Shown: positions 18,001 through 24,000 of the stretch, in pieces
Layout: each line of letters begins with the position of its first letter
Position numbering within the stretch: the stretch's first letter is position 1
Assembly (NCBI RefSeq): GCF_016903815.1
Contig: NZ_CP069973.1
Reading direction: 5' to 3' (one strand)
Source: Escherichia coli
GTDB lineage: Bacteria > Pseudomonadota > Gammaproteobacteria > Enterobacterales > Enterobacteriaceae
Length of the DNA stretch: 64,000 nucleotides
Made by a program: the position numbers

Positions 18001-21000
18001 AAATCTTCGACGTGGAAATCCCACATCCGGTACTGGTTATCGCCCGTGTTAGCGCGAATATGCCACATACCGGTTGCCGCATTGCTATCGAGTGGCCAGG
18101 TAAAGTGGTAGAGGCCATTCTCCGGTTGACTAACGACGCTCCTGAGTACCTGCCCGTCGGGTTTAATCACGTCTAACTTGATGGGTTGATCGGGCAATGC
18201 TTTTCCATCTGCATCACGCAATAAACCATTGAGGATGACTGTTTCACCAGGGCGATAAAGATCGCGCGGGCCAAACATGAAAAACTGTTTGCTATAGCCT
18301 GGCGCGCCAGCAATGTTAAATTCTGCTAAGTCCAGCGCCGGAAGTTTTAAATCGAGTAGCGTTGTCTGACCGTCTTTACGCGCCAGCAGTAATGCCGCGT
18401 TTTTATCATTTTCCAGCTGCACATGCCCCTGAGCATCACTGGTTGCCTGAGTCAGAGTCTGCCCTTTCTCATTTAATAAAGAGACTTCTATTCCTTGCTG
18501 GGCCGCGCCGTTTTCCAGACTTTGGGTAAAGATATCCAGACGATTGTGATAACGGTGAGCTGAAACGCCGATATCACTTAACGTAAACAGCGTCGCGGGA
18601 TTACTGTAATCGTAACGTCCAGCCTGATTCATCACAGCCAGATACACGCCTGCCTGCTGAAGCGGTTTGATATCACCCAGCGGCAGCAATAATTTTTCAC
18701 GGGTGTTACGCGCAGGATTGAGATCAAACCGTCCGGTATAAACCAGATCCGCCATCTGCAGCAGTTTTTCAGACTGCCAGTTCGCCAGCGAATTGCGGTA
18801 TTCCCATTGGCTAATGAATGCAGGCAGAGATTCGGGCTTCACACGGAAGAAGTTAACATCAACATTGTTAACGTTGAGCGCCATTACCGGCAGCCCTTCA
18901 ATAACTTTACCAGGTAACAACGAACCACGGCTGGCAAAACCAACGCTGGGTTGGATATCGCGGGTAGTTATAGTTTTTTCGTAATCTTTACTGAAGGTTG
19001 CGTTGTTGAGTGCTTTGACCTCCTTGCCAATAGTGACGATCAAATCACGTTTCGGTTCGAGGTGGCGTAAACGCAACTCTTTAAGATTATCTGACAGCTC
19101 CCAGGCACCATCCACTTTGCCGCTTTTCTTATCGACGACATGGATAACGCGTGAGAAATCCTGATCCGGGTCGAGAGGAATGGAGAACGTCAGCACCAGC
19201 GTGGCTGCGCCATCAAGTTGAACTTCAGAGAGATCCAGCAATGTCAGCGCCTTACCGGCACTCTGTTGGGCCAGTTTTTGTCGCTCCGGCGCGGAAAGTT
19301 TTGCTGAACTCACGTTTTCTGAAGAGGCCGCTTTAGTAACTTCAGAAGGCGCATCTTTTTTCACCGCTGTTGGCGCGTTATCGTTGTTGTCGCACCCTGC
19401 CAGCGCCAGCATTAGCATGCAGGCGGCTACGCGTAACTTTTTCATTTTTCATCCCTGCCACAATGGCCCGTTAGCAACGTCGAATAATTATTATGCGTGA
19501 GAATTTACGTTATGTAATTCAGTATCACGCCCATACAATCCGAATTTTAGTGAGAATTGTGGCTCAGACAGCCAAATCAGCCTCTTTTGCTTGTCGCTTT
19601 TCACTAAACATCCGACAATTTAGCCTAACCCCGGCAAAAATGGAGATGCCTATGTCCACGACATGGTTTGTAGGAGCCGACTGGCTCGCCGAACATATTG
19701 ATGACCCGGAAATTCAGATTATCGATGCCCGCATGGCGTCGCCTGGACAGGAAGATCGTAACGTTGCTCAGGAGTATCTGAATGGACATATTCCCGGCGC
19801 AGTGTTTTTTGATATCGAAGCGCTTTCTGATCACACTTCCCCGCTTCCGCACATGCTGCCGCGCCCGGAAACGTTCGCCGTGGCGATGCGTGAATTAGGC
19901 GTTAACCAGGATAAGCACCTGATTGTCTATGACGAAGGTAATCTTTTCTCAGCCCCACGAGCATGGTGGATGCTGCGCACCTTTGGTGTAGAGAAAGTGT
20001 CGATTCTGGGTGGTGGACTTGCAGGCTGGCAGCGTGATGATCTGCTATTTGAAGAAGGCGCAGTAGAGCTGCCGGAAGGAGAGTTTAACGCCGCGTTTAA
20101 TCCTGAAGCCGTGGTGAAAGTAACCGATGTGTTATTGGCAAGCCATGAAAATACGGCGCAAATTATCGATGCCCGCCCGGCTGCACGTTTTAACGCAGAA
20201 GTTGATGAACCTCGCCCAGGTTTACGTCGCGGACATATTCCCGGCGCGTTTAACGTTCCGTGGACAGAACTGGTGCGCGAAGGCGAACTAAAAACGACCG
20301 ATGAACTGGATGCGATATTTTTTGGTCGCGGCGTCAGCTATGACAAACCGATTATCGTCAGCTGCGGCTCTGGTGTAACGGCAGCCGTGGTTTTGTTGGC
20401 ACTCGCGACGCTGGATGTGCCAAACGTGAAACTGTACGACGGCGCATGGAGTGAATGGGGCGCACGAGCAGATTTACCGGTTGAGCCCGTAAAATAAGCT
20501 TTTTACAGGCAATAAAAAACCGCCGAATTTGGCGGTTTTTTATTGCTGGTCTGGTTCGCGGCCTTTCCAGCAGATTGTATTACTGCAAGTGTATCTCGTC
20601 TACTCAATACTCGCTTTATGCATCAACGATGTCAAGTAGATAAAAAAGGATAGATTTTGAATTCATTTAGCTTATCAGTCCGAATTCAGACAAATATAAA
20701 CAAATCCCGCTTAATATTAAAATATACTAACTGATAAAAGATATTAGTTAAACGTGTAACTTCACTTTCTTTAAACAACAAAAAACCGCCAAAATCAGGC
20801 GGTTATTTGTTGCTGGTTTGGTTCGCGGCCTTTCCAGCAGATTGTATTACCGTAGTAATGCAAGCGCGTCTCAGCGGACACAATACTCGCCAGTAACTCT
20901 CTCTTTGTCAAGTAAAAGAGAGTTATTATTGTTCTGTTAGTGTATTATCCACTGCGGACCTTTCCGCCGTCTCGCAAGCGGGCGCTGGCTCAAGGAAAGG

Positions 21001-24000
21001 ATGTTCCGCGACCGTTAGGGCAAGCGCGTCTCAGCGCTTGCTATCGCGGCAATATCGCCAGTGGTGCTGTCGTGATGCGGTCTTCGCATGGACCGCACAA
21101 TGAAGATACGGTGCTTTTGTATCGTACTTATTGTTTCTGGTGCGCTGTTAACCGAGGTAAATAATAACCGGAGTCTCTCCGGCAACAATTTATTGGTTGT
21201 TAACAACCTTCAGAACAGCAGGTAAGCCCGAATGCCGCCCTTTGGGGCGGCATATTTTAGATTATCCGGTTCTGTTTAAAGTCACGCAAAAAACCACCCC
21301 AGCGACGTTCATAGAATGGCACAATATGTTCGGTAATAAAGTGGCTAATTCCTTTTTCCCCTTTTTTCACCTGACAAATATCGATGGGTTCATCGCCAGG
21401 TAATGTATCGGTCGCTACACTTCCCGCCGCCTGAATAATTTCTTCGATATCACCATCGGCTTCAATGCCAATAAGTAAATTAGGCTGTGCCTCTTCGTTC
21501 TCTTTAATTGAACAAATAAAAGCACGCTTCACCGGCTTAATAGTTTTAAATAAGGTGGTGAGAGAATCAATCATTTGTGCTGGTGGCTCTGCGACTTCCG
21601 ATAATATCAGCGATTCACCGCCCTCCAGTACTTCCTGGCTGCTCAGCGGATTTCCTTCTTCACCAATCAACAAACTGATTTCACGCGGCATAAATTCTTT
21701 ACCGGTTGGCAGTTTGGCATTAAGGAAGAGCGTTTCGCCAAGGGTCATCTCAAACAATGTGCGAACGGGCATTACGACAAATGCCTGTTCGTCTTCAACC
21801 GCCTGTTGAAGTGCTTCTAACGAGGTGAAAAAAGGAATGACGCTGGTGCCGTCTTCTTTTTCCCAGTGCTGTAAATCAAGCGCGCTATCTTCAACCACAG
21901 CCTCGCCCTGCGCCGCCGTACCAGGCACCCAGACGGTGGATTCCAGTAGCGTACGGAAAAAGGCCGGGCGGTGCGCCGGTTCGGTTGCTGCTTTTTCCAG
22001 CAGATCTTCAAGTTCGTTTTTTGTTTCGGACATAAGAACCACAATTCATTCAACGTTCGGGGCACAAGTGCCTGATGCGCTACGCTTATCAGGCCTACAA
22101 GGGAATCTCAATCTATTGGATTTTCGCAATTTTGTAGGCCAAATAAGACGTTTACGCCGTTAACAGATTAGCAATCGTGCGCACACCTAGCCCGGTCGCG
22201 CCCGCAGACCACTGTTCAACCGGCGATTTACGGTAAGTCGCCGAGCAGTCGATATGCAGCCAGCCTTGCTGATAGTTCTCAACAAAGTGCGACAGGAAGC
22301 CCGCCGCCGTGCTCGCGCCTGCCGGATACGCCGCGCTTCCGGTATTGTTCAGTTCCGCAAAGTTAGACGGCAGCTGGCTGCGGTGGAACTCCGCCAGCGG
22401 CAGACGCCAGAACGGTTCATTCTCCTGCGCGGCACTCGCCAGCAAGCGACCGGCAAGCGCATCGTCAAAACTGAACAGCGCGTGATAATCATTACCCAGC
22501 GCAGTTTTCGCCGCCCCGGTGAGGGTCGCCGCATCAATGATCAGTTCCGGTTTCTGCGCACTGGCATCAATCAGGCCATCGGCCAGCACCAAACGCCCTT
22601 CGGCATCAGTGTTCATCACTTCAACTTTTTTACCGTTGCGATAGGTAATAATATCGCCCAGTTTGAACGCGTTGCCGCTGATCAGGTTATCCGCACAGCA
22701 GAGGAACAGCTTCACGCGCTTGTTCAGTCCGCGCGTAATGGCAAATGCCAGCGCCCCGGTAACCGTTGCCGCGCCGCCCATGTCCGACTTCATCGAGTCC
22801 ATAAACGCAGTCTGTTTGATGCTGTAGCCGCCGGAGTCAAAAGTGATACCTTTACCTACCAGGCACGCGTACACTGGCGCTTCTTTATCGCCTGTTGGGT
22901 TGTAATCCAGCGCCAGCAATACCGGGGAACGTTCTGAACCGCGCCCGACCGTGTGCAGCCCCATATAACCTTGATCACGCAGATCTTCACCTTTGGTGAT
23001 CCGATAAGTCACACGATCGCCCGCGACGTTGCTGATCAGATCAACAGCACGCTGTGCCAGTTGCGATGGTCCCAATTCTTCTGCCGGTGCGTTGATGGTG
23101 TCACGCACCCAGTCGATGATCATCAGGCGGTTATCCAGTTCCTGCCGCTGGGCATCGTCCAGATCCGGCCACTCCACTTTACGCGTGCCTTTCGGGGCTT
23201 TGTAACCTTGCCAGAATGTCCAGCAGCGATCCGCATCCCAGCCTTCACCGCTTAACTGAACATGTTTGATGCCCAGACCGTCAATCTTGCGCGCCGCACG
23301 CTGGATCAGCCCCAGATCGTCTGCCCCGTTCAAATGCAGGGTAATGCCATCATTATTAATGCTGTAAGTCGCTTTTTCTCCCCAGCGCGCGTCGGCAGGT
23401 TGGGTAGAGAGGGTAATTTTCATCTCTTCTGTCATTTTAGTTATCCTTATTCGTTTAACAGCAAAACGGGCTACCCCCAGGCAGCCCGTTCATTTATTCG
23501 GCTTCGTCCAGCCAGACTAACAAAATCGCTTCGAGGATTTTCTCGTTGGATGCCTGCGGGTCGTCGTCGAAATCTTCCAGATCGCAAATCCACTGATGCA
23601 TATCGGTGAATCGAACCGTTTTCGGATCAAGATCGGGATACGCATCGTACAGTGCTTCGCCAATTTCGCGGCTATCGGTCCACTTAAGTCCCATACTAAC
23701 CTCTGTTAATGCTCACGCGCATGGTTGATAGTGTAACGCGGGATTTCGACCACTAAATCTTCGTCGGTAACGCGCGCCTGGCAGCTTAAACGGCTTTCCG
23801 GCTCCAGTCCCCAGGCTTTGTCCAGCATGTCGTCTTCCTGCTCTGAGCTTTCCGGCAGCGAGTCAAAACCTTCGCGAACGATGCAGTGGCAGGTGGTGCA
23901 AGCACAGGATTTTTCACAGGCGTGTTCAATCTCGATACCGTTACGCAGCGCAACGTCGAGAATGGTTTCACCACTATTCGCTTCCAGAACAGCGCCATCA

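Follow-up and report, generated by a model that had tools for sequence, protein, structure and literature searches.

The sseA-sseB Spacer and the timP Gene

This report concerns the spacer between sseA and sseB in a 64-kb stretch of the Escherichia coli genome (64,000 nucleotides of contig NZ_CP069973.1, hereafter the window), which carries the toxin gene timP and two units resembling TimR, the small RNA (sRNA) that controls timP in Salmonella. The spacer is 759 bp long and is bounded on the left by sseA, encoding 3-mercaptopyruvate sulfurtransferase (19652-20497, plus strand), and on the right by the end of sseB at 21257 (21257-22033, minus strand). Both boundaries follow the RefSeq annotation, that of sseA being transferred by coordinates from an identical record. 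The whole spacer is 100% identical to that of E. coli strain 7/2 (NZ_CP023820).

The ryfA RNA, which corresponds to the timP mRNA, was located on the plus strand at 20954-21258 by a full-length match to Rfam family RF00126 (314.9 bits, E 5e-88, gathering score 80). Within it lies the timP coding sequence (21100-21225, plus strand), whose 41-amino-acid product, MKIRCFCIVLIVSGALLTEVNNNRSLSGNNLLVVNNLQNSR, is RefSeq protein WP_004974226.1 in NZ_CP023820 and carries the RefSeq name timP, 'small toxic inner membrane protein'. This product matches the NCBIfam model NF040796 (toxic_TimP) with 84.2 bits against a cutoff of 45. The spacer length, a ryfA-like transcript and a 41-codon open reading frame (ORF) had been proposed in a first-pass annotation made from the DNA alone, and are borne out by RefSeq, RF00126 and NF040796. 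A terminator scan placed an intrinsic terminator for ryfA/timP at 21232-21253 (plus strand), convergent with the 3′ end of sseB. We found only one ryfA match in the whole window; with two sRNA units and a single toxin gene, the locus does not have the ryfA1/ryfA2 double module of the Shigella type.

An in-frame ATG is present 12 nt upstream of the annotated start and would give a 45-amino-acid product (21088-21225, plus strand), the form discussed for uropathogenic E. coli (UPEC) CFT073 (PMC8205139). This upstream ATG lies inside stem-loop 4 (SL4) of the leader, and the ATG at 21100 is the start used by RefSeq and in the Salmonella work.

Two TimR Units with Conserved Promoters and Terminators

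Upstream of ryfA the spacer contains two homologous units on the minus strand. Unit A (20514-20600), beginning 5′-GACGAGAUACACUUGC, was delimited by alignment to the annotation of K-12 timR (b4811); unit B (20780-20876), beginning 5′-CGCUGAGACGCGCUUGC, was delimited by homology and shows 17/17 complementarity to 21020-21036. The predicted 5′ ends, 20600 for unit A and 20876 for unit B, align with the annotated 5′ end of K-12 timR. The two units form a 70-nt direct repeat (20514-20583 and 20781-20850) of 86% identity, and the 21-nt core GGTTCGCGGCCTTTCCAGCAG occurs at only two sites in the 64 kb, both in units A and B, where none would be expected by chance.

Each unit is preceded by the same minus-strand promoter. 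A pattern search for TTGACA-N17-GAGTAT returned only 20911-20883 and 20635-20607 on the minus strand of the whole window, one site per unit. In the unit A promoter (20607-20635) the -35 hexamer lies at 20635-20630 and the -10 hexamer at 20612-20607, and in the unit B promoter (20883-20911) at 20911-20906 and 20888-20883, respectively, with 17 bp between hexamers in both. The 3′ end of unit A is formed by a palindromic hairpin (20509-20546; 19-nt arms, 95% complementary) that would serve as terminator for sseA on the plus strand and for unit A on the minus strand; in the folded unit A RNA it appears as a 13-bp stem followed by a U run. The unit B hairpin (20784-20804) scores as a terminator on both strands. 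In each unit the terminal hairpin is strong and a U run comes after it. Two paralogous units with hairpins and shared promoters, as postulated in the first-pass annotation, are thus present. The predicted folds are stable for both RNAs (unit A, -29.2 kcal/mol, z -4.96; unit B, -32.9 kcal/mol, z -3.35). No Rfam family was found for the TimR units; only sub-threshold chance matches were obtained (rimP leader, AgrB, RNAI), and these fell on the terminator.

Unit B Is Predicted to Pair with SL2 of the timP Leader

The 17-nt sequence GCAAGCGCGTCTCAGCG is present in identical form at 20860-20876, the 5′ end of unit B, and at 21020-21036 in the ryfA leader; by our own arithmetic about 2e-5 exact 17-mers of this kind are expected by chance in 850 bp. 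Since the sequence stands at both places, the first 17 nt of an RNA initiated at 20876 on the minus strand would be a perfect complement to part of the ryfA leader, exactly as first suggested. The 3′ end of the pairing site is 64 nt upstream of the timP ORF.

The minimum free energy fold of the 5′ untranslated region (5′UTR) of timP predicts four stem-loops, SL1-SL4 (-74.9 kcal/mol, z -3.0). From the repeat and this fold, the predicted TimR binding site (21020-21036, plus strand; ryfA positions 67-83) takes up the 5′ half of the SL2 stem, the loop and 3 nt of the 3′ half. In Salmonella, the TimR site is SL2 of the 5′UTR, with G76 in the loop (PMC11228461). A complementarity search also predicted a 7-bp pseudoknot between CGCUGGC in an arm of SL1 (20983-20989, plus strand; ryfA positions 30-36) and GCCAGUG in the SL3 loop (21057-21063, plus strand; ryfA positions 104-110). 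In Salmonella a 7-bp SL1-SL3 pseudoknot is needed for translation and is destabilized by TimR binding, and the Shine-Dalgarno (SD) sequence is sequestered in SL4 (PMC11228461, PMC13000454).

Duplex energies were calculated from the first 26-30 nt of each sRNA, the full-length RNAduplex calculation having been set aside as inflated and uninformative (-76 against a shuffled mean of -60). The 5′ end of unit B gave -37 to -43 kcal/mol with its own leader, and that of unit A -16.7 to -18.6 kcal/mol with the window leader. One seed calculation made for both units gave -43.2 kcal/mol for B and -17.2 kcal/mol for A. This difference identifies unit B as the cognate TimR. Unit A had been described as sharing the promoter and terminator of unit B while diverging at its 5′ end, and this agrees with its distinct seed, designated X below, and its energy of about -17 kcal/mol. 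Within the window, no other target of the X seed was better than chance.

Seed and Leader Alleles Covary

Alignment of the window, K-12, N31 and O157 yielded three matched seed/leader pairs, W, K and O. The W allele is GCAAGCGCGTCTCAGCG, as in the window; in the K allele the K-12 leader GCAGGTGTTTCACAGCG matches the K-12 unit distal to ryfA, GCAGGTGCTTCACAGC; and the O allele is CAGGCACCCCACAGTG. Their counterparts among the variable-region variants already published are CGCGT, TGTTT and CACCC, respectively (Fris 2017, PMC5333039). The seed of unit A, GCAAGTGTATCTCGTC, matches none of the three and was named allele X. A first search for an X leader was confounded by W-type 5′ flanks; when repeated free of flanks, it found the X allele in E. 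coli 1190 and O7:H15 ST70, where the leader reads ...AAATGCAAGTGTATCTCGTCGCTTGC and its GCAAGTGTATCTCGTC is identical at 16/16 positions to the unit A seed of the window. In these strains the distal unit, which is 1 nt from window unit A, has the matching seed, and the proximal unit has a K-like, non-cognate seed. One metagenome contig (L027) has the same arrangement. The variable region of X, TGTAT, is outside the four variants listed by Fris 2017 (PMC5333039). Because its cognate leader occurs in other E. coli and not in this strain, unit A is a genuine TimR allele that lacks its target here. Judged from sequence, E. coli has four or more alleles in which seed and leader match (W, K, O and X).

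The other 24 of the 25 metagenome matches to the X leader were rejected as belonging to an unrelated repeat family. These matches to GCAAGTGTATCTCNNNNCTTGCT (L016-L026 and L028-L040; metagenomes Ga0307512, Ga0307514 and Ga0307515) come from a dispersed repeat of approximately 35-nt units (...GCCTCCAAGTGCATCTCCAAACTCGCTCGATCA...) on long contigs, without relation to ryfA.

In a 4×4 matrix of seeds and leaders, the predicted duplex energies were -32.4 to -38.5 kcal/mol on the cognate diagonal and -8.8 to -27.2 kcal/mol for non-cognate combinations. This predicted orthogonality agrees with the specificity observed in Shigella, where RyfB1 represses RyfA1 and not RyfA2 (PMC5333039). The covariation analysis used nine different seed/leader pairs, all cognate, taken from E. 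coli, E. whittamii, Escherichia sp. E1V33 and two Citrobacter. Compensatory changes on both sides were found in 11/17 intermolecular pairs, and 96.1% of cells were paired, against 80.3% in shuffles (0/500 reached the observed value) and 21-49% with the register slid. The 21020-21036 segment is thus the variable, specificity-determining region that covaries with the sRNA seed across the nine pairs, and the covariation supports a functional pairing; the complementarity noted at first in this one genome extends to its relatives through compensatory changes. Within the 5′ half of SL2, W and K differ by A to G and C to U changes, which, read from the sequences, keep the stem through G·U pairs with the constant 3′ half GCGCUUGC. 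A contig scan with GCGGTCNNNGCANNGACCGCACNNNNAAG was too strict, returning seven loci, one of them a chance match (L009), and no Salmonella.

Distribution of Alleles in E. coli Genomes

Alleles were counted across 5,426 E. coli genomes by joining allele-specific segments of unequal length into single queries, the coverage of which shows which alleles co-occur. In what follows, distal denotes the sseA-adjacent position of unit A and proximal the ryfA-adjacent position of unit B. The window type (distal X, proximal W, leader W) was found in 349 genomes and the K-12 type (distal K, proximal W, leader K), with a cognate distal and a non-cognate proximal unit, in 1,530. The O103:H2 type (distal K, proximal W, leader W) accounts for about 160 genomes, and the 1190 type (distal X, proximal K-like, leader X) for 36. 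Combinations to which a distal unit does not apply are the O-type pair (proximal O, leader O; 381 genomes), single-unit W (proximal W, leader W; about 2,400) and single-unit K (proximal K, leader K; about 325).

The X seed is present in 394 genomes, 36 of which have the X leader. Genomes with two units and one toxin number approximately 2,075, consistent with the 2,043 that cover at least 80% of the 761-nt spacer. A second, non-cognate TimR is found in about 2,000 of the 5,426 genomes, and at least one cognate sRNA is present at every inspected locus that has an intact timP promoter.

Interpretation of the Locus

We consider it very probable that the spacer consists of one timP/TimR type I toxin-antitoxin module plus one extra TimR gene of different specificity, and that unit A is likely target-less. 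By homology with Salmonella, where ryfA is the TimP mRNA and the divergently encoded sRNA TimR pairs through its 5′ end with the 5′UTR (PMC7667032), the 20954-21258 transcript would be the mRNA for the 41-amino-acid inner-membrane toxin TimP, and unit B (20876 to 20780, minus strand) would make a TimR sRNA of approximately 97 nt. Its first 17 nt are predicted to bind the SL2 loop and the 5′ half of the SL2 stem; by analogy this pairing would open SL2 and destabilize the SL1-SL3 pseudoknot required for initiation, and TimP would not be made. Unit A (20600 to 20514, minus strand) is a second TimR gene; its promoter, core and terminator are intact, and its X seed fits the W leader poorly. In E. 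coli with the X leader this same gene serves as the sole cognate antitoxin. In the window its most probable status is that of an expressed but target-less remnant, left behind when the module was duplicated, a toxin gene was lost and alleles were exchanged at the locus.

Several observations weigh against this interpretation. In the covariation analysis each seed was picked as the best upstream match, a choice that favors pairing; every one of them lies at the homologous 5′ end of a TimR-like unit. The population counts given as 'about' were estimated from evenly spaced result rows and are approximate. In the W, K and O sRNAs the seed is followed by a small 5-bp hairpin that is missing from unit A; the same hairpin-less form is the sole cognate antitoxin in 1190-type strains. 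Finally, ryfA phenotypes in UPEC are independent of the TimP ORF (PMC8205139), and in avian pathogenic E. coli (APEC) a timR deletion has little effect and no TimP peptide was detected (PMC13188913). These two reports leave toxin activity of E. coli TimP at native expression unproven; they do not contradict the sequence-level assignment.

The same reports bear on a different view of RyfA, namely that it functions mainly as a regulatory RNA acting in trans, with effects on stress resistance, type 1 fimbriae and ompC, that the TimR-like RNAs are its partners or sponges, and that the ORF is incidental in E. coli. We regard this as rather unlikely. ORF-disrupted ryfA variants still complement the UPEC ryfA mutant (PMC8205139), in APEC loss of ryfA causes attenuation, loss of timR is silent and a strain lacking both resembles wild type (PMC13188913), and overproduction of Shigella RyfA1 lowers ompC (PMC5333039). 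However, the ORF is conserved and scores above the cutoff of the curated TimP model, and toxicity, membrane targeting and translational control by TimR have been shown directly in Salmonella (PMC7667032, PMC11228461, PMC13000454). Overexpression of RyfA also slows the growth of E. coli MG1655 (PMC4606813), which lends indirect support to toxicity in E. coli, and the toxin and regulatory roles are compatible.

A second alternative accepts the timP/TimR module and holds that unit A is kept by selection, either as an sRNA that acts in trans on other targets or as an antitoxin already in place against X-type timP alleles brought in by recombination (immunity or anti-addiction). The intact hexamers, core and terminator of unit A, its distance of 1 nt from the X antitoxin of 1190-type strains, the intact non-cognate TimR in about 2,000 of 5,426 genomes and the approximately 10-fold excess of orphan over cognate X copies all speak for it. 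On the other hand, window-type genomes may be a single lineage, in which case conservation could reflect recent ancestry; the comparison of the window with L041 gives one substitution in unit A against four in the neighboring spacer, too few to show selection; and X seed matches elsewhere in the window are no better than chance. On this evidence, maintenance by selection seems quite unlikely.

That unit A is an inactive relic, consisting of the sseA terminator and a decayed sRNA, we consider improbable: it has no target at this locus and lacks the hairpin after the seed, but its TTGACA-17-GAGTAT promoter is perfect, its terminator is strong, and 36 genomes with intact timP have this very sequence as their one cognate antitoxin. 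Least of all do we favor the inter-unit region as an independent plus-strand sRNA, IS128, and as the real feature of the spacer, which is very improbable given that the RF00125 match (20644-20822, plus strand; 153.5 bits, gathering score 80) combines the AT-rich inter-unit spacer with a structured 3′ part that is the unit B terminator read on the other strand, that no plus-strand promoter-like site precedes it in the window, that the ryfA promoter stub that could drive IS128 in K-12 is deleted here, and that the segment is variably present among strains (PMC3318445). IS128 is therefore probably not an independent gene here; the family is a computational prediction. Weak IS128 matches were also seen at 20472-20550.

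Comparison with K-12 and Probable History of the Locus

In K-12 the same spacer is annotated with timR (b4811), ryfA (b4440) and timP (b4812). The annotated timR is the sseA-proximal unit, at the position of window unit A, and there it is cognate (K allele). Unit A, whose status the first-pass annotation had left unclear, is thus the positional ortholog of annotated K-12 timR with another specificity, its cognate leader being found in other strains. The ryfA-proximal unit of K-12 (L002:1722-1800) is an unannotated TimR-like gene with an intact promoter, a W seed and a terminator. Its duplex energy with the K-12 leader is -27 to -34 kcal/mol, against -38 to -42 kcal/mol for the cognate unit, and it is classed as non-cognate. 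K-12 and the window therefore share the spacer, the two-unit architecture and IS128 between the units, but the roles of the two positions are reversed: the sseA-proximal unit is cognate and the ryfA-proximal unit non-cognate in K-12, whereas in the window the distal unit carries X.

E. coli NRZ94505 has two complete cognate modules in tandem, separated by an 87-nt sseB fragment and an IS128 spacer; the latter (L014:1321-1432) is 91% identical. In K-12 (L002:1457-1560), the promoter and an approximately 30-nt 5′ stub of a second ryfA copy lie beside the distal TimR; this stub is missing from the window (compared at 20636-20670) and from 1190-type strains. The junction of the K-12 stub matches the end of the partial sseB fragment in NRZ94505. 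Together, the stub and the matching junction suggest that a double module lost one of its toxin copies by deletion, and the differing allele combinations on the same scaffold point to recombination.

At two loci, L005:1528-1600 (E. coli 06-00048) and L012:8071-8140 (Citrobacter amalonaticus), the TimR body runs into ryfA downstream of SL2. Each fusion looks like a deletion between the copies of the 16-17-nt seed/target direct repeat, approximately 160 bp apart, with removal of both promoters. As such fusions are found in two unrelated lineages, the regulatory repeat may also be a route of module loss. Insertion sequences occur in the spacer of several loci (L005, L015, L041 and L042), among them ISEcB1 in 06-00048. 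IS481 in FDAARGOS_1258 places the cognate TimR 1,260 bp from its target, and in 1190-type strains an IS200/IS605 tnpA lies beside unit A, the sRNA there ending in a different terminator hairpin.

Relation to Known Systems

The closest characterized system is timP/TimR of Salmonella enterica (Andresen 2020; Eleftheraki and Holmqvist 2024; NAR 2026). Shared with it are the ryfA-family mRNA, a small toxin ORF with a Sec signal from approximately +147, a divergent sRNA of approximately 100 nt directed to SL2, the SD in SL4 and a potential SL1-SL3 pseudoknot. The window differs in having two TimR genes, one of them cognate, and in having no STM2534 between sseA and timP. The Salmonella biochemistry was done on another allele. 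The type I architecture initially proposed for the locus, that of timP/TimR or ryfA/RyfB, is in keeping with the RefSeq timP assignment, the K-12 annotations and the position of the site in SL2.

The ryfB1-ryfA1/ryfB2-ryfA2 locus of Shigella dysenteriae (Fris 2017) likewise has two paralogous divergent sRNAs of approximately 100 nt, whose specificity is set by the variable region of the leader; among the variants published there, the window leader is CGCGT and the K-12 leader TGTTT. Shigella keeps both toxin genes, whereas the window has one toxin and two sRNAs. The comparison with RyfA/RyfB of Shigella, made in the first-pass annotation, holds for RyfB1 and RyfB2, which are TimR homologs. Its proposal to align the region to K-12 ryfB and ryfC would mislead; these genes do not lie within the spacer, and in K-12 the name ryfB stands for another gene, subsequently shown to code for a small protein (PMC3318445).

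In the type I systems zorO-orzO and Ibs/Sib, toxin-sRNA pairs occur in tandem or in multiple copies, and short variable pairing regions keep the antitoxins specific; the toxins are unrelated to TimP, and the Ibs/Sib antitoxin is an overlapping antisense RNA, in contrast to the divergent, non-overlapping antitoxin of the window. The zorO-orzO system is also cited in PMC5333039.

Published work already covers the module with its mechanism, the sibling sRNAs and the variable region, and timP is already annotated in this genome. In the literature searched we found no report of the X allele, of the two-slot scheme with reversed cognate positions or of how frequent TimR copies without a target are. 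All three enlarge a known system and are not a new kind of system; the pattern of spare antitoxins is a modest extension of Shigella RyfB1/RyfB2.

An intact antitoxin of unneeded specificity is present in approximately 38% of genomes. We tentatively put forward the possibility that E. coli timPR is a polymorphic lock-and-key system with at least four orthogonal alleles, two antitoxin slots and usually one toxin, in which the spares may be maintained. If so, spares could allow a toxin allele to be swapped by recombination without a lethal mismatch, or could protect against incoming alleles. The allele diversity would then represent ongoing co-diversification of antitoxin and toxin within one species, with X (TGTAT) as a fifth leader variant beyond the four published. 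Natural orthogonal seed/leader alleles, together with widespread target-less antitoxins, lend themselves to studies of how type I antitoxins acquire new specificities without loss of the mRNA stem-loop, which is preserved here through G·U-preserving transitions in the 5′ half of SL2.

There is also a practical consequence. Transfer of annotation by position fails at this locus, the sseA-adjacent copy being cognate in K-12 and non-cognate in window-type strains. Given this reversal, a 'timR deletion' in a two-slot E. coli may remove the wrong gene, which is relevant to the reports of timR deletions without phenotype.

Other Rfam Matches in the Window

Apart from the spacer, matches above the gathering score were obtained for the ALIL pseudoknot (33-149, minus strand), an IS3-type frameshift element at the window edge, for sroE (7756-7847, minus strand), for the iscRS stability element (28491-28600, minus strand) and for GlmY (57836-57983, minus strand).

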